From the IMG/VR virus record IMGVR_UViG_2684622669_000014: DNA of 9,088 nt; one strand, given 5' to 3'. Position 1 is the stretch's first letter. Each line of letters begins with the position of its first letter. Made by a program: the position numbers and the translations under genes. Below, piece after piece: positions 1 to 8,286 of the stretch. This DNA comes from a virus. Lineage: Duplodnaviria > Heunggongvirae > Uroviricota > Caudoviricetes. Below the pieces are notes generated by a model that made no database searches, had not been told where the DNA came from, and saw only the letters and a list, made by a program, of their open reading frames with translations.

Positions 1-74
1 AGGCATGTGGTGAGGCGTTTCTGGCGCAGGTTCGCCTGCAGGCGGAAAAGCTGGTCAGGGAGATGGCGGCATGA
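1..74 (+). CDS. 3' end of an unidentified upstream nin-region gene (5'-truncated by the window edge)
   Basis: Frame 3 is open from the window start and ends at TGA 72-74 (C-terminus ...LQAEKLVREMAA), forming an ATGA start/stop overlap with the next gene at 71. Too short to identify; not in the ORF track because it has no start in the window. Confidence 0.4.
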   Translation, partial: ACGEAFLAQVRLQAEKLVREMAA

Positions 75-397
75 CGACGTTAACTCAATGCCAGCAGCAG
101 GTGCTGGATATGCTGATTTCTTATCAGAAAGAGCGTGGCTTCCCGCCAACCAATCAGGAGGTGGCAACCATGCTGGGATACCGTTCGGTGAATGCAGCGG
201 TGGAGCATCTTCGCGCACTGGAGAAAAAAGGCGTCATCACGATAAAGCGTGGTGTGGCCCGGGGGATCACGCTTCATACCGCGGTGAAGGACGACGACAG
301 CGAGGCGGTCGGGATTATCCGCTCACTGCTTGCCGGTGAGGAAAACGCAAGGCTGCGTGCAACTCACTGGTTACATGAGAGAGGCCTGAAAGTATGA
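71..397 (+). CDS. LexA-like winged-helix DNA-binding domain protein lacking the S24 peptidase domain (108 aa)
   Basis: ORF 71..397 with SD AGGGAG 57-62. The N-terminal ~70 aa resemble the LexA N-terminal DNA-binding domain as I recall it (LexA ...[55 protein letters not shown]... vs here LTQCQQQVLDMLISYQKERGFPPTNQEVATMLGYRSVNAAVEHLRALEKKGVITI). Stop overlaps the rusA start (ATGA). Confidence 0.75.
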   Translation: MTTLTQCQQQVLDMLISYQKERGFPPTNQEVATMLGYRSVNAAVEHLRALEKKGVITIKRGVARGITLHTAVKDDDSEAVGIIRSLLAGEENARLRATHWLHERGLKV

Positions 398-802: not shown

Positions 803-1612
803 ATGAATAATCTGATGGTTATTGATGGTATTGAAGTTCGTCGTGATGCTTATGGGCGTTACAGCCTGAACGATCTGCACAGGGCAGCCGGGGGAGAACA
901 AAAAAACCGCCCGAAATACTGGCTCTCCAATAAGCAAACCTGTGAATTGATTGAACAACTTTTCACCGAGGGTGGAATTCCGCCTCTGGAACAAAATCAA
1001 CCAGTTAGCGTCATTAATGGCGGAAATAACCAGGGGACGTATGTCTGCAAAGAACTGGTGTATGCCTATGCAATGTGGATCAGCCCGTCATTCCATCTGA
1101 AGGTGATCCGTACTTTCGATATGGTAACCAGCGCACCGGAAAAATTATCCGGGCAGGCTGCTGACAAGATGCAGGCTGGAGTGATTCTGCTGGACTTTAT
1201 GCGCAGGGAGTTAAACCTGTCTAACTCTTCAGTGCTTGGTGCCTGTCAGAAACTCCAGGAGGCTGTTGGCTTACCGAATCTGGCACCGCGCTATGCCATT
1301 GATGCTCCTGCTGATGCACACGATGGCTCAAGTCGCCCGACACTGTCACTGAGTGCACTGCTGAAACAGTATGGTATACGCCTGACGGCTAATCAGGCAT
1401 ATCACCAGATGGTGAAACTGGGGATCGTCGAGCAGCGCGAACGATACAGCCGTACCGCGATTAACAACATCAAAAAATTCTGGTCGCTGACAGCGAAAGG
1501 TTGCATGTTCGGCAAGAACATCACCAGTCCCGCAAATCCGCGCGAGACGCAGCCGCATTTCTTCGAATCCCGATTCCCTGAGCTGTTAAAGCTGCTCGAT
1601 ACCGTTCATTGA
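803..1612 (+). CDS. KilA-N domain protein (phage antirepressor/Roi-like DNA-binding protein)
   Basis: 269-aa ORF with strong SD (AAGAGGAG) 8-15 nt upstream. N-terminal ~100 aa match the KilA-N fold signature (VIDGIEVRRDAYGRYSLNDLHRAAGG...KYWLSNKQTCELIEQL...GTYVCKELVYAYAMWISPSFHLKVIRTF). Confidence 0.85.
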   Translation: MNNLMVIDGIEVRRDAYGRYSLNDLHRAAGGEQKNRPKYWLSNKQTCELIEQLFTEGGIPPLEQNQPVSVINGGNNQGTYVCKELVYAYAMWISPSFHLKVIRTFDMVTSAPEKLSGQAADKMQAGVILLDFMRRELNLSNSSVLGACQKLQEAVGLPNLAPRYAIDAPADAHDGSSRPTLSLSALLKQYGIRLTANQAYHQMVKLGIVEQRERYSRTAINNIKKFWSLTAKGCMFGKNITSPANPRETQPHFFESRFPELLKLLDTVH

Positions 1613-1613
1613 G

Positions 1614-1955
1614 GTGACCGTGAGAGCACTACTGACCCCTGAAATTGCCCCGCGTATGGGGATCGTATTGTTCAGGCCAGGTTCAGAGCTGATGCCCCTG
1701 TTTATGCAGGGGCGTGTCCTGCTGGAGCCTGAGCCGGAACGTTATTCATCTTTTGCCAGTGGTGCCGTTCCGGCTGCATCACAACCGCTGGCGGATGATC
1801 CTGCCGTTCGGGCCGTGTTCCGCAATGAGGCAGTGATCCGTCGTGCTGGTGGCGTGGAATGTCTTGAAAGCTGGTTACTTCGTGAAAAAGGCTGCCAGTG
1901 GCCTCATTCCGACTGGCACAGCGAGAACATGACCACAATGCGAAGCAACGGATAA
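1614..1955 (+). CDS. Hypothetical phage protein; possibly the N-terminal part of a YdfU/DUF968-like gene that continues in another frame
   Basis: 113-aa ORF starting with GTG immediately after the KilA-N stop. No recognisable motif. The downstream frame-1 ORF is open from 1933 and overlaps this ORF's 3' end, suggesting one gene interrupted by a frameshift. Confidence 0.5.
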   Translation: MTVRALLTPEIAPRMGIVLFRPGSELMPLFMQGRVLLEPEPERYSSFASGAVPAASQPLADDPAVRAVFRNEAVIRRAGGVECLESWLLREKGCQWPHSDWHSENMTTMRSNG

Positions 1956-1968
1956 CTGTGCCCGCTGG

Positions 1969-2529
1969 GTGTTGTCTGTTGTGCGTCGGGATCTCGGTTT
2001 TGATGACAGTCACGTTGTGACAATGCCGGAACTATGCTGGTGGCTGATTCGTAATGATCTGGCGGATGCCTTACCGGAAAGTGCAGCCCGTAAGGCACTG
2101 AGATTACCGAAGCCTTTTGTGCCGTCTGTCACCCGGGAAAGTGACCTAGTGCCTTCGGTTCCTGCCACCAGCATCATCCAGAATAAAGCGAAAAAGGTGC
2201 TGGCGCTGAAAGTGGATCCGGAGTCGCCGGACTCTTTTATGTTACGCCCAAAACGTCGCCGCTGGGTTAATGAAAAGTACACGCGATGGGTTAAGACGCA
2301 GCCGTGCGCATGTTGTGGAAAACCTGCTGATGATCCCCACCACCTGATAGGCCACGGTCAGGGTGGAATGGGGACAAAAGCGCATGACCTCTTTGTGTTG
2401 CCTTTGTGCAGAAAGCATCACGACGAGCTGCATGCGGATACTGTGGCATTCGAAGAGAAGTATGGCTCCCAGCTGGAGCTGATATTTCGTTTTATCGATC
2501 GTGCGCTGGCGATTGGTGTGCTGGCCTGA
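1969..2529 (+). CDS. YdfU/DUF968-like prophage protein with Cys/His cluster (putative zinc-binding, HNH-like)
   Basis: 186-aa ORF containing [14 protein letters not shown] ... CRKHHDELH. Sits immediately upstream of Q, as the DUF968 gene ydfU does beside the Q homolog in the K-12 Qin prophage (from memory). Start is uncertain: GTG 1969 or ATG 2027, both without a clear SD. Confidence 0.6.
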
Positions 2530-2546: not shown

Positions 2547-2924
2547 ATGCGTGATATTCAGATGGTTCTTGAGCGTTGGGGAGCGTGGGCGGCTAATAAT
2601 CATGAAGATGTGACTTGGTCGTCCATTGCCGCCGGTTTTAAGGGATTAATTCCTTCAAAAGTAAAATCTCGCCCACAATGTTGTGACGATGACGCGATGA
2701 TCATTTGCGGGTGCATGGCCCGTCTGAAAAAGAACAACAGCGATTTGCATGATTTATTGGTGGACTATTATGTCGGCGGCATGACTTTTATGGCGCTTGC
2801 ACGTAAGCATGGGCGATCTGATTGTTGGGTTGGCAGGATGCTCCAGAAAGCTGAGGGCGTAGTGGAGGGTATGCTGATGGTGTTGGATCTCCGATTGGAG
2901 ATGGATGCTGATTGTTCGAAATAA
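2547..2924 (+). CDS. Q: Late-gene antiterminator Q (phage 21/QuuD-type)
   Basis: ORF track gives 2406..2924, but the protein from the internal ATG 2547 ([34 protein letters not shown]...[16 protein letters not shown]...) matches the DLP12 QuuD-type Q antiterminator as I recall it, has an SD GGAG at 2536-2539, and avoids overlapping the upstream gene. Confidence 0.9.
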
Positions 2925-2936
2925 TTAAAGGAAAAG

Positions 2937-2965
2937 TTGCTGTCTGATTGTCATTAGTCTAACAT
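2937..2965 (+). promoter_or_regulatory. Candidate late promoter pR' (-35 TTGCTG, 17-nt spacer, -10 TAACAT); a Q-utilisation (qut) site is expected within or just downstream
   Basis: TTGCTG at 2937-2942 and TAACAT at 2960-2965, just after the Q stop. A start near 2972 with termination at tR' near 3051 would give a short ~80-nt leader as in lambdoid late operons. Hexamers are non-consensus; assignment is by position. Confidence 0.35.
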
Positions 2966-3022
2966 TTTAAATGTTGGAATCGCAACGTAGTTATTATCAT
3001 ATAACAGCTTGTTTCCTGATTT

Positions 3023-3051
3023 AGCCAGCCTCCCCAAAGGCTGGTTTTTTT
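3023..3051 (+). terminator. Rho-independent terminator, candidate tR' (target of Q antitermination)
   Basis: GC-rich hairpin CCAGCC(3025-3030)-loop TCCCCAAA-GGCTGG(3039-3044) followed by T-run 3045-3051. The minus-strand reading has no U-tail, so it is + oriented. Confidence 0.7.
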
Positions 3052-3079
3052 CTAATAAGTATTATTTCGGGTAGGGATT

Positions 3080-3604
3080 TTATTGTTTAACCCATAATAA
3101 TTCATTGACATTGAATCCCAACTTTTGAGCGGTTCGCACATAGTCTGCTTTTACTTTATCTGGAATAGTTGGGGTCCTTGCCAGAATCCATAGGTATTCT
3201 CTGTTCGGACCACTGACAAGAGCATACTTATACTCATCATCCAGTTTGATTACATTATAGCCACCATAGAAGGGGCCAAAAAACGAAACCTTCAACGCTG
3301 CAGTTTTAGTATCTCCAGTAAAGTATGCTTTACCTTCGCTCTCGCTCCATTTATTTTTCGTTGGATCGTATCCACGGTTAAGTACACGAATCCCTCCGTC
3401 GTTCCGTTTTCCATAAGTAGCGCTGACCTGTTCCAGACTACGTTCGAACCGGTTCTCGAGGCGAGCTATTTCATACCATTTTCCGAGGTAGCGGTTGGCG
3501 TCAAAATTTGTAATCGGCTGCACACCTTTAGGTGGTGTCGGGGCCTTACATGCTATAAGAGTGAAAGAGAGTGCAATGCCAGTCAACACAGGCCATAACT
3601 TCAT
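3080..3604 (-). CDS. Bacterial lipocalin (Blc-like) outer-membrane lipoprotein
   Basis: 174-aa ORF with a lipoprotein signal peptide and lipobox (LIAC) and lipocalin motifs close to E. coli Blc as I recall it (NFDANRYLGKWYEIARLENRFER, GKAYFTGDTKTAALKVSFFGPFYGGYNVI, YLWILARTP). Convergent with late transcription from pR'. Confidence 0.9.
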   Translation of the reverse strand: MKLWPVLTGIALSFTLIACKAPTPPKGVQPITNFDANRYLGKWYEIARLENRFERSLEQVSATYGKRNDGGIRVLNRGYDPTKNKWSESEGKAYFTGDTKTAALKVSFFGPFYGGYNVIKLDDEYKYALVSGPNREYLWILARTPTIPDKVKADYVRTAQKLGFNVNELLWVKQ

Positions 3605-3796
3605 AATAAATCCTGTACTTTTGATAGTTGAGAGTAAGTATGAAAGATAGATGATTACGACCGATCACTTAAAGAACTTTCATACTATATTAGGAATAGT
3701 CCATAACAGAAAAATTGTCAGTGATGACGCCAGAAAGGCAATTTATTCCGTGCACTACACAGTTTATGTGTTAATGAATTAGTCAAGGGGGAGGAT

Positions 3797-4756
3797 ATGA
3801 TAAAAAAACCTGTGATTGGAATTAGCGGTTGTTTGGCCGGTTCTGCTGTTCGTTTTGATGGTGGTCACAAAAGAGCTGACTTTTTAATGGACAAATTAGT
3901 GGAATGGGTAACATTCAGACCAGTATGTCCGGAAATGGCTATAGGGCTGCCAGTTCCGCGTCCTGCTCTACGTCTTGTGCGCTCGACGCAAGGAAATATA
4001 CGGATGTGTTTCAGCCACGACCAGAATGAGGATGTGACAGAGAGAATGACAGAGTTTAGTCGTTCTTATATGGACAAATTAAAGGATGTATCGGGGTTTG
4101 TGGTTTGTGCTAAATCTCCCAGCTGTGGCATGGAGCGCGTGCGTGTCTATGATGAAAATGGTAATCGAGGTCGTAAAGATGGAGTGGGACTATTTACGAG
4201 CACTTTGATGGAAAAGTTTTCCTGGCTACCGGTTGAAGAGGATGGGCGATTACATGATCCAGTGCTTCGTGAGAATTTTGTTGAAAGAGTTTTTGCTTTG
4301 CATGAGCTCAATCACCTTTACAAGGAGAAATTATCAAGAAGAGAGTTATTAGCTTTTCATAGTCGTTATAAGCTTCAGTTGTTGGCGCATAGTCAGGCAG
4401 GCTATAAAGATATGGGACCATTTGTGGCTGCAATACACGAGTGGGCGGACCTTGAATCATACTTTGAGGTGTATCGTGATAAGCTGATGGCGATTCTCAG
4501 AAAACCTGCATCACGTAAAAATCACACGAATGTGCTGATGCATATACAGGGGTATTTTAGTAACTACTTAAGTACACGCCAGCGTAAAGAGTTGAGCGAG
4601 GTTATACTTAACTATCGTTCTGGCACATTACCTCTTCTTGCGCCGTTGACTCTGCTGAAGCATTATCTGGGTGAGTATCCTAATGACTACTTGCTTACAC
4701 AGAATTACTTCGATCCCTATCCGGACGAACTGGCTCTAAGACTGATGGTAAATTAA
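3797..4756 (+). CDS. DUF523-DUF1722 fusion protein (TudS-like Fe-S thiouracil-desulfidase domain plus YbgA-like C-terminal domain)
   Basis: 319-aa ORF with strong SD GGGGGAGG 6 nt upstream. N-terminal domain carries the conserved cysteines expected of DUF523/TudS [4Fe-4S] proteins (GISGCLAG, PVCPE, CAKSPSCG); C-terminal half resembles DUF1722/YbgA. Mid-range GC, unlike the phage backbone. Confidence 0.85.
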   Translation: MIKKPVIGISGCLAGSAVRFDGGHKRADFLMDKLVEWVTFRPVCPEMAIGLPVPRPALRLVRSTQGNIRMCFSHDQNEDVTERMTEFSRSYMDKLKDVSGFVVCAKSPSCGMERVRVYDENGNRGRKDGVGLFTSTLMEKFSWLPVEEDGRLHDPVLRENFVERVFALHELNHLYKEKLSRRELLAFHSRYKLQLLAHSQAGYKDMGPFVAAIHEWADLESYFEVYRDKLMAILRKPASRKNHTNVLMHIQGYFSNYLSTRQRKELSEVILNYRSGTLPLLAPLTLLKHYLGEYPNDYLLTQNYFDPYPDELALRLMVN

Positions 4757-5107
4757 TTGTATGCGATATCATCCAAAAGGATGAGTTCCTGCATGCAGGA
4801 TATTTACAATCGTAAAAACTACACTATGATACCCAGAGTGTCAGTTTGTATAAAAACTCTGTTTACGCTGAAGAAACCATTGAGATGCAACTTAAAGTTG
4901 GTAAACATGCCAGTCAAAATATATAATATTATGATTCCACGCAGCTATATATAATATAACAGATTGGTTTAATAATTTGCCTTTGTGAGTTAAATACATA
5001 ATTTTATACTTGTGATGCAATGAGATTTTCCTTATTGTTGAACTGGCGAATATTGATTTTCCACCTATACTTACCTGGTGTAACCCCAATGATATCAGGT
5101 GGATAAT

Positions 5108-5839
5108 ATGCCATACATATGTTCTATCATTTTGGTGTTGAACTCGTTTGATGTCCGAATTGGTAAAGAAGATATTTTGTTTAAAAAAGGAAGTGCTGTT
5201 CTCATTGATTACAATTTAAAAGATTTTTTTTCATCAAATATAGATCATGTAATGATCGTAGATATTGAAGAGAAAACAGTTAATGATTTCTTTAAAAGCA
5301 ATACACTCTCACCTTTTTCTGTAAGAAGGTTTTATCCGGCATACTTGATGGTGGAGTGTGAAGATTTTTCATTGTTAAAGAATTTGATTGCATGCTTGAA
5401 TTGTGATGGCAGAACTGTGGATTTTGTTAGAAATCAAATATCACTTGCATGTCTTGCTATCTTATCTTCAGAGAAAATAGTGCAAAGTTTTTTATTTGGA
5501 TGTCTTAATAGTTTAGGAAGTAAAGTTAAGGCTATTATTCACACGGATATATCTGCAGCATGGAGACTTTGTGATATATCTTCAAGACTGTATTTGAGTG
5601 AAAGTCTGTTAAAAAGAAAATTAAAGCACGAAGGCTTATCATTTAGTAAGTTAATTCTTGAAGAGCGAATGGTGATGGCGGAAAGGTTATTAAGCTACAA
5701 TTTATATTCTGTTGGAAAAGTTGCTGAGATATGCGGTTATGAAAACACGTCATATTTTGTAAGTGTTTTCAGAAGATATTTTGGTGTTCCTCCCCATCAA
5801 TATTCATCAAGATTTTTTTTAGAAAAAGACATGATGTAA
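5108..5839 (+). CDS. AraC/XylS-family transcriptional regulator (Rns/GadX-like, AT-rich)
   Basis: C-terminal ~100 aa show the AraC double-HTH signature (LSFSKLILEERMVMAERLL...SVGKVAEICGYENTSYFVSVFRRYFGVPPHQY). ORF track starts at GTG 5099; I prefer ATG 5108 with SD AGGTGG at 5097-5102. Strongly AT-rich by eye, with a ~350-bp AT-rich upstream region. Confidence 0.8.
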   Translation: MPYICSIILVLNSFDVRIGKEDILFKKGSAVLIDYNLKDFFSSNIDHVMIVDIEEKTVNDFFKSNTLSPFSVRRFYPAYLMVECEDFSLLKNLIACLNCDGRTVDFVRNQISLACLAILSSEKIVQSFLFGCLNSLGSKVKAIIHTDISAAWRLCDISSRLYLSESLLKRKLKHEGLSFSKLILEERMVMAERLLSYNLYSVGKVAEICGYENTSYFVSVFRRYFGVPPHQYSSRFFLEKDMM

Positions 5840-6027
5840 CGTGATGCGTTTTAATGATTTTGTAATTTTTGTATTTGATAAATGTATGATGCTTTCAGCT
5901 ACGCCAGAATAATCGCTGGTGTTTTTCTTTTTGAATAGATGTTCAAGCCTTACGCTAATGTAACTTCTATACCTTTCCTCTTCGTTCCGAACCGTGTACA
6001 CCATCCGTTATTTGCGGAGGTGAGGCT

Positions 6028-6243
6028 ATGAAATCCATGGATAAGTTAACAACGGGCATTGCCTACGGCACCTCCGCAGGCAGTGCTGGCTACTGGTTTT
6101 TACAGCTGCTCGATAAAGTCACGCCCTCACAGTGGGCAGCAATAGGTGTGCTGGGTAGCTTGGTATTTGGCCTGCTGACGTACCTGACAAACCTTTATTT
6201 CAAGATTAAAGAAGATAAACGCAAGGCTGCGAGAGGTGAATAA
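6028..6243 (+). CDS. S: Phage-21-type pinholin (class II holin) with dual-start motif
   Basis: 71-aa ORF matching S21 pinholin as I recall it ([56 protein letters not shown]). SD GGAGG 6016-6020. Two in-frame starts (M1-K-S-M4: ATG 6028 and ATG 6037) consistent with antiholin/holin dual start. Stop overlaps the endolysin start. Confidence 0.9.
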
Positions 6244-6740
6244 TGCCTCCATCATTACGAAAAGCCGTTGCTGCTGCTATTGGTGGCGGAGCAATTGCTA
6301 TAGCATCAGTGTTAATCACTGGCTCAAGTGGTAACGATGGTCTGGAAGGTGTCAGCTACATACCATACAAAGATATTGTTGGTGTATGGACTGTATGTCA
6401 CGGGCATACAGGAAAAGACATCATGCCCGGTAAAACGTATACCAAAGCAGAATGCAAAGCACTCTTGAATAAAGACCTTGCCACTGTCGCCAGACAAATT
6501 AACCCGTACATCAAAGTCGATATACCGGAAACAACGCACGCCGCTCTTTACTCATTCGTTTACAACGTGGGTGCTGGCAATTTCAGAACATCGACGCTTC
6601 TTCGCAAAATAAACCAGGGCGATATCAAAGGCGCATGTGATCAGCTACGTCGCTGGACATATGCTGGCGGTAAGCAATGGAAAGGTCTCATGACTCGTCG
6701 TGAGATTGAGCGTGAAATCTGTTTGTGGGGTCAGCAATGA
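6243..6740 (+). CDS. R: SAR endolysin (phage-21 R-type lysozyme, T4 lysozyme-like fold)
   Basis: 165-aa ORF with a Gly/Ala-rich N-terminal signal-anchor-release segment ([20 protein letters not shown]) followed by a lysozyme domain. Start overlaps the holin stop (TAATG); stop overlaps the Rz start (ATGA). Confidence 0.9.
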
Positions 6741-7201
6741 ACAGAGTAACCGCGATTATCTCCGCTCTGGTTATCTGCATCATCGTCTGCCTGTCATGGG
6801 CTGTTAATCATTACCGTGATAACGCCATTACCTACAAAGCCCAGCGCGACAAAAATGCCAGAGAACTGAAGCTGGCGAACGCGGCAATTACTGACATGCA
6901 GATGCGTCAGCGTGATGTTGCTGCGCTCGATGCAAAATACACGAAGGAGTTAGCTGATGCGAAAGCTGAAAATGATGCTCTGCGTGATGATGTTGCCGCT
7001 GGTCGTCGTCGGTTGCACATCAAAGCAGTCTGTCAGTCAGTGCGTGAAGCCACCACCGCCTCCGGCGTGGATAATGCAGCCTCCCCCCGACTGGCAGACA
7101 CCGCTGAACGGGATTATTTCATCCTCAGAGAACGGCTGATGACAATGCAGAAGCAACTGGAAGGAGCACAGGAATATATCCGTACCCAGTGTATACCGTG
7201 A
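6737..7201 (+). CDS. Rz: Rz inner-membrane spanin (i-spanin), lambda-type
   Basis: ORF track starts at 6725, but ATG 6737 ([21 protein letters not shown]...) gives the canonical Rz N-terminal TM segment and an ATGA overlap with the endolysin stop. Coiled-coil-rich periplasmic domain; near-identical to lambda Rz as recalled. Confidence 0.88.
6957..7139 (+). CDS. Rz1: Rz1 outer-membrane lipoprotein spanin (o-spanin), embedded in the +1 frame of Rz
   Basis: 60-aa ORF wholly inside Rz, SD AAGGAG 6944-6949. Lipoprotein signal with lipobox LVVVGC and proline-rich mature part ([15 protein letters not shown]), as in lambda Rz1. Confidence 0.82.
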
Positions 7202-7666
7202 TGTTTTGTTATGAAGGTGTTACTGGTAACGTTAAGGTAATTTAACAAAAAGTCAGTTCCGGACTTTATAGTGTGCTCAGATCATGGCCAAAAACGATTT
7301 CTGTGATAAATATTTTGAATATTATTTACAGATAAATGAAGTTGTTCGCATGGATGGAAATATTACAATAGAGTATGAAGTATATGTCCGTATTGTATGG
7401 GCAGAGAAGGCAAAAACACGGTAATTCCTTGTGTTGCCATTATACCTGATTGGCAGAATAGTTGTTTGGTTTTGAGTATATAGTCAGCGTTTTTTGTTCA
7501 GTAATAGCTCTCTCAAAAAATAATAAAATAAGGTGATTATTTGGGTTTATTATTTGGTTTTTTTTGTGTGTTGTTTTGTTGTTTTTCTGTGATTTATTTT
7601 TTATTGTTATTTCATTAAAGGAAGGTAAATTCAGGATAGCAGTCTGTAGATAATCGGAGGTCACTT

Positions 7667-7981
7667 ATGCTACATGATCACCTGGCAGAATGTCTGGAGA
7701 AAAAAGGACTGTACCGGAGAGCAGCTGAACGATGGGCAAAAGTGATGGTACAGCTAAGTGATGACCAGAAAAGAAAAGTGGCGGCACAGAAACGAGCAGA
7801 GTGTTTGCGTAAGGCGCGCCGGACTCCGGTTTCACCGGTGAACCTGACAGAAATAAAACAAGCGGTCAACAGACTACATTCTGAGTTGGGAATGGGATTT
7901 GAAGAGCGGCGGGTATTCCGACGATATAAAGGGACAGGAGAACAGAATACGTCCGGAAACGCGCGGTCAAAAAAATGCTAA
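7667..7981 (+). CDS. PerC-family-like small transcriptional activator (Pch/PerC homolog candidate)
   Basis: 104-aa basic ORF with SD GGAGG 7656-7660. N-terminal LEKKGLYRRAAERWAKVM resembles the PerC/Pch signature as I remember it (..LE.KGLWRRAA..W..V). Preceded by a long AT/T-rich tract. Confidence 0.55.
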   Translation: MLHDHLAECLEKKGLYRRAAERWAKVMVQLSDDQKRKVAAQKRAECLRKARRTPVSPVNLTEIKQAVNRLHSELGMGFEERRVFRRYKGTGEQNTSGNARSKKC

Positions 7982-8061: not shown

Positions 8062-8286
8062 TTAAGTAAACCTGTCTGAACAGGTGCTCTGGTCGTGTTT
8101 GTCTTTGTTGGGTAAAAATTGAGAATATTTTTCATTAATTAATCTTCTTCTGCAGGCTTCAATAACCCACGCTGAAAAATTCCCTGAACCTTTCTGGTCA
8201 AGAGCAATATTAATTTGTTCAATCATCTGGTTTGGAAATCGGATGTTGCGGGTTGTTGTTCTTCGGGTTCTGTTCTTCGATGACAT
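8062..8286 (-). CDS. YlcI/DUF3950-like small prophage protein (putative ribbon-helix-helix type)
   Basis: 74-aa ORF on the minus strand; NIRFPNQMIEQINIALDQKGSGNFSAWVIEACRRRL matches what I recall of DLP12 YlcI, which also sits immediately upstream of the Nu1 homolog. Confidence 0.7.
   Translation of the reverse strand: MSSKNRTRRTTTRNIRFPNQMIEQINIALDQKGSGNFSAWVIEACRRRLINEKYSQFLPNKDKHDQSTCSDRFT

Follow-up and report, generated by a model that had tools for sequence, protein, structure and literature searches.

The stretch of DNA analysed here (IMG/VR record IMGVR_UViG_2684622669_000014, from a virus of the Caudoviricetes) is 9088 bases long and is referred to below, as a whole, as the window; all positions are on its numbering. 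Its list of open reading frames (ORFs) and a Pfam search place it in the late-regulatory and lysis part of a lambdoid prophage. Between the antiterminator gene Q and the holin gene S lies a cassette (3052-6027) with genes for a Blc-type lipocalin, for the tRNA-related desulfidase RudS and for a regulator of the AraC/XylS family, and this cassette is the subject of our analysis. A preliminary description of the window had placed three non-phage genes between a tR'-like terminator and the holin gene, and both their identities and their coordinates are borne out by profile searches and by comparison with prophage DLP12. The left flank is a Q gene of the QuuD/phage-21 type (2547-2924, plus strand; Pfam Phage_antitermQ, 171.8 bits), whose DNA is 87% identical to quuD of E. 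coli K-12 as far as position 2906 and whose protein is 96.8% identical to the Q protein of phage 1H12; the right flank is a P21-type holin gene (6028-6243, plus strand; Pfam Phage_holin_2_1, 120.9 bits). DLP12 has a related Q gene and holin gene with nmpC in between, and homology to it ends at 2906 and restarts at 6017; the boundaries originally given to the island are therefore sound.

Lambdoid phages carry morons in this Q-S slot, and in Stx phages the slot holds stx. The likening of the present cargo to stx in its position holds, in that DLP12 has nmpC and prophage Sp4 of O157:H7 Sakai has psrA in the same slot. As psrA lies directly 3' of the Sp4 antiterminator, it provides a characterised precedent for an AraC-family regulator at this site. 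In related phages the backbone genes on either side of this site enclose other cargo: nmpC in DLP12, and an AraC gene alone in a further prophage (L083).

The three cargo genes

The first cargo gene lies on the minus strand (3080-3604), convergent with late transcription, and encodes an outer-membrane lipocalin lipoprotein of the Blc type, as judged by profile search. Its product scores 148.6 bits against Pfam Lipocalin_2 and, over residues 1-174, 314.5 bits against the Blc subfamily model of NCBIfam (NF007786, cut-off 267), which makes it a member of that subfamily, and it is 59% identical to Blc of K-12 over its full length (174 against 177 residues). The N-terminus, read from the translation, is MKLWPVLTGIALSFTLIAC-K, with a lipobox LIAC, its cysteine at position 19 and a lysine at +2, from which a lipoprotein signal peptide and an outer-membrane sorting residue, and hence this localisation, are predicted. 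In a study of infant-gut coliphages blc is a moron in more than 50% of its lambda phages, and membrane proteins predominate among the lambda morons (PMC6969025). One could therefore suppose that the lipocalin masks a phage receptor in the manner of Cor or Llp, or that the cassette is a defence system, and that its purpose is to exclude superinfecting phages or to defend the cell against phages. Exclusion genes are frequent in moron slots, and the lipobox, the outer-membrane sorting signal and the predominance of membrane proteins just mentioned would all agree with such a role. However, none of the three cargo proteins has a match in PADLOC (0/3), the protein passes the cut-off of the Blc subfamily, and chromosomal copies about 80% identical to it pair with rudS and not with phage genes, so that we regard an exclusion function as highly improbable.

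The second gene, rudS (3797-4756, plus strand), encodes a fusion of a TudS (DUF523) [4Fe-4S] desulfidase with DUF1722, and both domains are found by Pfam (PF04463, 137.9 bits at residues 7-149; PF08349, 138.2 bits at residues 192-309). The protein is 93.4% identical to RudS_vir, gp66 of phage 1H12, which was the viral representative selected in the RudS study (PMC11417400). It retains Cys12, Cys44 and Cys110 as listed for RudS_vir, and its alignment to TudS (6Z92) spans the first two of these cysteines. Furthermore, Glu46, Arg55, Ser107 and Ser109 stand at the same offsets as Glu51, Arg60, Ser111 and Ser113 of RudS_KT, and mutating the latter abolishes activity (PMC11417400). Every RudS gene tested in that work, RudS_vir included, reduced the level of 4-thiouridine (s4U), the near-ultraviolet (near-UV) sensor in tRNA, on overexpression in E. 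coli, and RudS_vir gave the shortest lag on free 4-thiouracil (PMC11417400). These likenesses suggest that the window RudS is an eraser of s4U in tRNA, which it would turn back into uridine. The lipocalin gene and rudS diverge from an intergenic region of low GC content (3605-3796; GC 0.34), which is presumed to hold the promoters of both; it is about 95% conserved among the phage alleles, and a consensus scan found only weak promoter-like matches within it.

E. coli has been stated to be without TudS or RudS homologues (PMC11417400). Our survey runs counter to this statement: the rudS-bearing cassette has matches in 1155 of the 5426 complete E. coli genomes (21%), which in 999 cases extend over 80% or more of it, and strains HS and C are among the carriers listed. 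The Qin-like prophage of BL21-Gold(DE3) contains a relic of the cassette (NC_012947.1, 2193331-2195387), in which the lipocalin gene is intact and only 147 nt from the start of rudS are left, the gene being cut there by IS3. BL21(DE3) is the host of the published ultraviolet A (UVA) assay, and the cut gene indicates that no working native rudS was present in it.

The third gene (5108-5839, plus strand; from 5099 if the start codon is GTG) encodes an AraC/XylS-family regulator of the PatE/Psr/GadW/YdeO group, in which HTH_18 (PF12833) is found with 54.8 bits. The protein is 53.6% identical over 235 residues to ECs_0287 of Sakai (247 aa, encoded at the end of prophage Sp1), which is probably PatE, 43% identical over 188 residues to PsrA (ECs_1087), and 34%, 32% and 32% identical to GadW, AppY and YdeO, respectively. 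Identity to ECs_0287 amounts to 67.6% in the DNA-binding half and 40% in the N-terminal half, and that N-terminal half is 18.5% identical to the one of PsrA. Two homologues from the database (P0017 and P0018) share 98% identity with ECs_0287. The protein has the AraC/XylS double helix-turn-helix and the full-length similarity that define the PatE/Psr group; its scores against the NCBIfam equivalog models for YdeO (127.4 bits, cut-off 348) and GadX (85.5 bits, cut-off 500) mark it as a relative and not an orthologue of these two regulators. PatE and PsrB activate gadE/hdeA, PsrA and PsrB repress type III secretion via GadE, all three act in lysogens, and a Pch/PerC regulator gene has been reported near the psr genes (review). 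By analogy, it is plausible that the window protein would share gadE/hdeA as targets.

Two modules and their spread

The composition of the cargo falls into two classes, not three. The AraC gene stands clearly apart (GC 0.313; GC at third codon positions, GC3, 0.258), and the lipocalin gene (0.438; GC3 0.406) and rudS (0.434; GC3 0.397) are indistinguishable from each other and lie slightly below Q, S and R (0.47-0.48; GC3 0.40-0.54); genes of the early region have a GC content of 0.50-0.56 and a GC3 of 0.54-0.65. The three genes had at first been said to differ by eye both from the backbone and among themselves. The GC and GC3 values uphold this for the AraC gene against the backbone and against the other two, but not for the lipocalin gene and rudS between themselves, which are alike and lie slightly below the neighbouring late genes.

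The same division appears in the relatives of these genes. A scan of chromosomal rudS loci, with one genome per species, revealed RudS relatives 66-77% identical to the window protein in Citrobacter, Enterobacter, Leclercia, Kluyvera, Klebsiella, Pectobacterium and others. At 41 of the 62 chromosomal loci, rudS has upstream of it a divergent gene for a lipocalin that shares about 80% identity with the phage copy, and at 36 of these 41 the pair is separated by genes for a MerR/MlrA-type regulator and a transthyretin-like protein (for example at 3660-4898 of locus L028). The transthyretin/HIUase-like gene is part of most lipocalin-rudS loci of the Enterobacter/Leclercia type. Two Citrobacter loci have the lipocalin gene and rudS directly adjacent; the spacer measures 188 nt in C. 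sedlakii and 192 nt in the phage, and between these two spacers no DNA homology was found. The AraC gene, Q and the holin gene occur in none of the chromosomal lipocalin-rudS loci. The conserved divergent pair in chromosomes, together with the shared composition, suggests that the lipocalin gene and rudS were captured as one block, without the regulator.

The AraC gene, for its part, is found without the other two. Its homologues P0013 (64% identical) and P0015 (56%) each stand alone between Q and a P21-type holin gene where the contig reaches, as in the prophage named above, and the Q genes beside them belong to two other Pfam Q families. At such loci the homology begins about 17 nt 5' of the ATG and runs through the terminator into the holin gene. 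These comparisons indicate an acquisition in two modules, lipocalin-rudS and AraC, and not in three steps; the stepwise acquisition first proposed thus stands for the AraC module and falls for the lipocalin gene and rudS, which form a single block. Partial cassettes were also considered as intermediates of assembly and rejected: the forms with lipocalin gene and rudS only, those with rudS and AraC gene only, and the BL21 form all end at IS1, IS3 or ISEc52. Incomplete forms of the cassette are products of decay mediated by insertion sequences (IS).

The whole arrangement from Q to the endolysin gene is present in 950 of the complete E. coli genomes, and the cassette alleles fall into classes of at least 99%, about 94% and about 89% identity. 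Twelve deposited phage genomes also carry the cassette, with the same gene order, orientation and position in all; DNA identity over the cassette is 99.0% in the isolate IdasGreatGrand (PP925829; from swamp mud) and about 89% in 1H12 and the related Lambda_ev/Lambda_2E9 series of infant-gut phages. The backbones that carry it are unrelated: a contractile-tail (myovirus-type) module near torI/dsdA (L001), Qin-like elements in which it lies beside hokD, rem and ydfU (L005-L007), and the lambda-like siphovirus 1H12. The earlier view that this is not a standard lambdoid configuration is contradicted by these 1155 E. coli and 12 phage genomes, by the published RudS_vir and by the listing of blc as a moron. 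The cassette is common, annotated, partly characterised and already known; in the literature we found no description of the three-gene unit as a whole. Two short contigs binned as 'Candidatus Nanosynbacter sp.' (L070, JARKOR010000151.1; L075, JARKOR010000135.1) carry Q, lipocalin gene, rudS, AraC gene and holin gene, the cassette being present at 94-100% protein identity, and they are almost certainly binning contaminants of a metagenome-assembled genome.

The segment of promoter, leader and terminator that follows Q (2925-3060, 136 nt) was located in 1113 genomes, 1096 of which have it near full length, and in 1065 of these 1096 (97%) the lipocalin gene abuts it directly with its 3' end. A chimeric query of the two flanks (2800-3056 and 5985-6300) found them adjacent in none of the 5426 complete genomes, so that the empty site which the preliminary description had hoped to find is absent from that collection. 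This linkage and the lack of an empty site suggest that the allele of Q, pR' and tR' and the cassette behave as one recombining unit. A place in the core of the lineage combined with a composition like that of the backbone had been regarded as incompatible with a cargo island: the conservation is indeed seen, in the 1065 linked genomes, and the backbone-like composition is not.

Such tight linkage, with no empty site, would also be expected if the genes conferred nothing and were hitch-hiking, locked between Q/pR' and lysis genes that recombine as a unit. The spread over unrelated backbones and the IS insertions and deletions seen in some genomes agree with a passenger of this kind. Substitution rates argue otherwise. 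Between the window and the 1H12 allele, at synonymous divergences (dS) of 0.19-0.36, the ratio of nonsynonymous to synonymous rates (dN/dS) is 0.078 for the lipocalin gene, 0.101 for rudS and 0.252 for the AraC gene, and the neighbours Q, S and R give 0.095, 0.069 and 0.131. These values of 0.08-0.25 for the cargo amount to sustained purifying selection, 999 of 1155 carriers retain at least 80% of the cassette and the catalytic residues of RudS are intact, and a mere passenger is for these reasons very unlikely. By this measure the three cargo genes are under purifying selection and are kept as working genes.

Transcription signals and proposed function

A candidate late promoter similar to pR' (TTGCTG-17-TAACAT; 2937-2965, plus strand) was read by eye from the sequence behind Q. 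It is conserved in all aligned alleles that bear the cassette and was missed by the consensus scan; its position is what suggests that it is the late promoter. A tR'-like intrinsic terminator follows at 3023-3052 (plus strand; terminator scan), with a 9-bp GC-rich stem and 7 T, a fold energy of -14.9 kcal/mol and a z-score of -3.6. A promoter with a short terminated leader after Q is the layout expected of a late promoter. On the minus strand the hairpin also forms, with no U-run behind it, and we do not claim it as a bidirectional terminator serving the lipocalin gene.

The AraC gene is accompanied by signals of its own. A promoter-like element 5' of it (TTTACA-16-TATGAT; 4803-4830, plus strand) matches the consensus at 10 of 12 positions, a joint best match for the region, and lies within a 28-nt block that is invariant in four alleles, with variable sequence on either side of the block. 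An intrinsic terminator lies between the AraC gene and the holin gene (5901-5933, plus strand; terminator scan; fold energy -9.4 kcal/mol, z -2.0), and its stem and T-run are kept in all alleles, the AraC-only prophage included. The conserved terminator and the invariant promoter-like block fit an autonomous unit. Morons are expected to have a promoter and terminator of their own and a distinct composition, and the AraC module, with these two signals and a GC content of 0.31, has this appearance; the lipocalin-rudS pair has weak promoter matches, no conserved terminator after rudS and a composition slightly below that of the late genes. Two further candidates were set aside: a hairpin at 4757-4800 (z -4.45), a candidate terminator of rudS, has no T-run and lacks conservation in 1H12, and a direct repeat (2995-3014 against 4950-4969, 17/20), considered as the relic of a duplicated leader, is of a kind of which about 3 chance matches are estimated in 3.2 kb of AT-rich sequence.

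The layout also bears on late transcription. As first described, rudS and the AraC gene lie on the plus (late) strand, 3' of the late promoter and its terminator and 5' of the holin gene, with the lipocalin gene on the opposite strand. The consensus scan found no promoter-like site between 5840 and 6027, the late genes lie downstream, and the phage genomes keep the cassette in this position; late read-through across the whole cassette is required for these reasons, and dependence of the lysis genes on Q-modified transcription through it would be a structural necessity of the layout. The preliminary description expected high transcription of the plus-strand cargo upon antitermination by Q, as for stx. 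In a model of this kind the cassette is a Q-dependent late payload: most expression of rudS and the AraC gene would follow induction, and the two would be of use in the lytic cycle, for example if the removal of s4U from the tRNA of the host allowed late proteins to be translated after the UV exposure that induced the prophage. The strand and place of the two genes with no promoter-like site just before the holin gene, the near-constant association of the late-promoter allele with the cassette and the missing empty site, the retention of its position in phage genomes such as the isolate IdasGreatGrand, and the known role of s4U as near-UV sensor all accord with this proposal. It accounts poorly for the terminator and promoter-like block that the AraC module keeps for itself, for a lipocalin gene that is antisense to late transcription and for a chromosomal lipocalin-rudS pair that is a cellular stress locus; moreover, the characterised regulators PsrA, PsrB and PatE act in lysogens, and a regulator produced minutes before lysis would have little time to act. 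We therefore think it rather unlikely that the cassette is chiefly a late payload. This is the main rival to the explanation that we prefer, and the two are not mutually exclusive.

The explanation that we prefer, with moderate confidence, is that the cassette consists of two modules and serves lysogenic conversion, late transcription also reading through it. One module would consist of the Blc-type lipocalin and RudS, taken as one block from an enterobacterial chromosomal stress locus without its MerR-type regulator; the other would be the AT-rich AraC regulator of the PatE/Psr group with its own promoter-like block and terminator. In the repressed prophage the cargo genes would rely on promoters of their own. 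Through RudS the tRNA would contain less s4U, and the growth delay under near-UV would be blunted as a result; the lipocalin would have its role in the outer membrane, and the AraC protein would target promoters of the host, those of the acid-resistance genes gadE/hdeA being the most plausible. After induction, RNA polymerase modified by Q would pass tR', the cassette and the second terminator, so that rudS and AraC mRNA would rise in a burst and the lipocalin gene would be transcribed in antisense. The cassette would presumably have an effect on fitness.

Several observations weigh against lysogenic conversion by two modules, or against parts of it. RudS_vir showed the weakest tRNA activity among the RudS proteins tested despite good protein levels, and a lower UVA growth delay was seen for the Pseudomonas enzyme only, overexpressed in BL21(DE3) (PMC11417400). 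The identification of ECs_0287 as PatE comes from its position in Sakai, its length and the review, and not from a PatE sequence; at 54% identity to this probable PatE (40% in the N-terminal half), and with the cut-offs for YdeO and GadX failed, the sharing of AraC targets is a guess. All promoter calls are matters of consensus or conservation only. The chromosomal scan identified no donor for the lipocalin-rudS block: the closest chromosomal rudS is 77% identical to the phage copy in protein and about 70% in DNA, and the chromosomal copies are GC-rich (rudS 0.54-0.59, lipocalin gene 0.59-0.62), which suggests that the capture is old or that the donor is unsampled. The AT excess of the lipocalin gene and rudS over the late genes is slight, and the disruption of the cassette by IS elements in some genomes suggests that it is dispensable in some lineages.

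If lysogenic conversion of this kind does occur, lambdoid phages bring RudS, without the light-linked MerR-type regulator, into a species said to lack it. Lysogens would then keep the s4U of their tRNA low and escape the near-UV growth arrest and the stringent response, and the phage would gain too, as host translation would still work after the sunlight exposure that triggers SOS induction. We offer more tentatively, and with some doubt, the idea that lipocalin-rudS is a portable sunlight-protection module to which the AraC gene adds acid-resistance control, so that the cassette would assist survival outside the host and re-entry into the gut. With about 21% of complete E. coli genomes carrying a prophage cassette in which rudS has its catalytic residues intact, the cassette bears on studies of s4U and near-UV in natural isolates. 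The two modules with their different histories are also a clean example of the accumulation of cargo in the slot from Q to the holin gene, and the AraC gene, whose PatE/Psr group alters the control of acid resistance and type III secretion in enterohaemorrhagic E. coli (EHEC), is here widespread in other E. coli.

Flanking genes and known relatives

The remainder of the window is made up of early-region genes, lysis genes and a segment with a Pch-type regulator gene; a tRNA scan of the window found none, and no match to Rfam was obtained at the gathering threshold. At the left end, a small gene (71-397, plus strand) encodes a 108-aa protein with a LexA DNA-binding domain (PF01726, 69 bits) and without a cleavage or dimerisation domain. 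A homologue is labelled 'LexA repressor' in RefSeq, and the protein could be a phage-borne LexA mimic that alters SOS control. It is followed by a RusA gene (394-783) and a KilA-N protein gene (803-1612, plus strand); the KilA-N protein matches the PADLOC candidate-defence model PDC-S22 weakly (E 1.2e-6, 25.8 bits, 36 residues), which is likely to reflect similarity in a shared domain only. The DUF968 (ydfU-like) gene (about 1614-2529, plus strand) is broken into two ORFs (1614-1955 and 1969-2529) and, compared with the intact 990-nt gene of the myovirus-type prophage L001, has a net deletion of 80 nt at about 1944. It is probably a pseudogene, which hints at decay of the prophage.

To the right of the holin gene follow genes for the endolysin (R; 6243-6740, plus strand; Pfam Phage_lysozyme, 157.1 bits) and Rz/Rz1 (6725-7201, plus strand; Pfam Phage_lysis, 181 bits). 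About 450 bp after Rz lies a gene of the PerC/Pch regulator family (7667-7981, plus strand; PF06069, 148.8 bits), whose product is identical at 103 of 104 residues to PchA of O157:H7 Sakai, an activator of the type III secretion island LEE; a DUF3950 gene lies beyond it (8062-8286, minus strand). In the late region of the window a Pch regulator thus accompanies an AraC regulator similar to PatE and Psr, as has been reported for the psr genes. Homology to other carriers of the cassette ends at 7179, and the 1.9 kb downstream of this junction (7179-7200) match prophages of Shiga toxin-producing E. coli (STEC) and EHEC at about 95.7%. None of the 5426 complete E. coli genomes has the cassette and lysis module joined to the pch/ylcI/nohD segment, which indicates that the source of the window carries a mosaic outside that collection. 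The interval between Rz and the pch-like gene (7200-7650) has a GC content of 0.30-0.34 and a strong positive GC skew; it contains no convincing ORF and has no Rfam match, and it may be an H-NS-type regulatory region of the pch gene.

Among known systems, stx and the nmpC cargo of DLP12 occupy the same slot 3' of the late promoter and terminator and 5' of the holin gene; unlike these, the window has one antisense gene, an AraC gene with its own terminator, and products that are neither toxins nor porins. The regulators PsrA, PsrB and PatE of EHEC O157:H7 are similar in being small AT-rich members of the AraC family carried as lambdoid prophage cargo with a Pch/PerC gene nearby, whereas the window AraC protein is a distinct member of the group that occurs mostly in non-EHEC genomes. 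The chromosomal blc of K-12 shares with the window lipocalin gene a product that passes the Blc subfamily model, a lipobox and a similar length. However, the window copy is a diverged second copy whose partner is rudS, where that of K-12 blc is ampC, and at about 80% it is nearer to the Enterobacter/Leclercia lipocalin encoded beside rudS than to K-12 Blc. RudS_KT and RudS_ST (ORF319 of Salmonella pathogenicity island 2, SPI-2) have the same two-domain architecture, the cluster cysteines and the Glu/Arg/Ser/Ser set, and ORF319 is of the same length (319 aa); the window rudS differs from them in being phage-borne and in standing without the MerR-type regulator gene that accompanies most chromosomal copies. 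The closest likeness to the whole is found in phage 1H12 (NC_049947), where gp65-gp67 are the same three genes between a QuuD-type Q and a P21-type holin gene, with protein identities to the window of 96.6% for the lipocalin, 93.4% for RudS and 83.1% for the AraC regulator. Phage 1H12 nevertheless represents a different allele, in which the AraC protein is the most diverged of the three, and it is the window that has a pchA-like gene after Rz.

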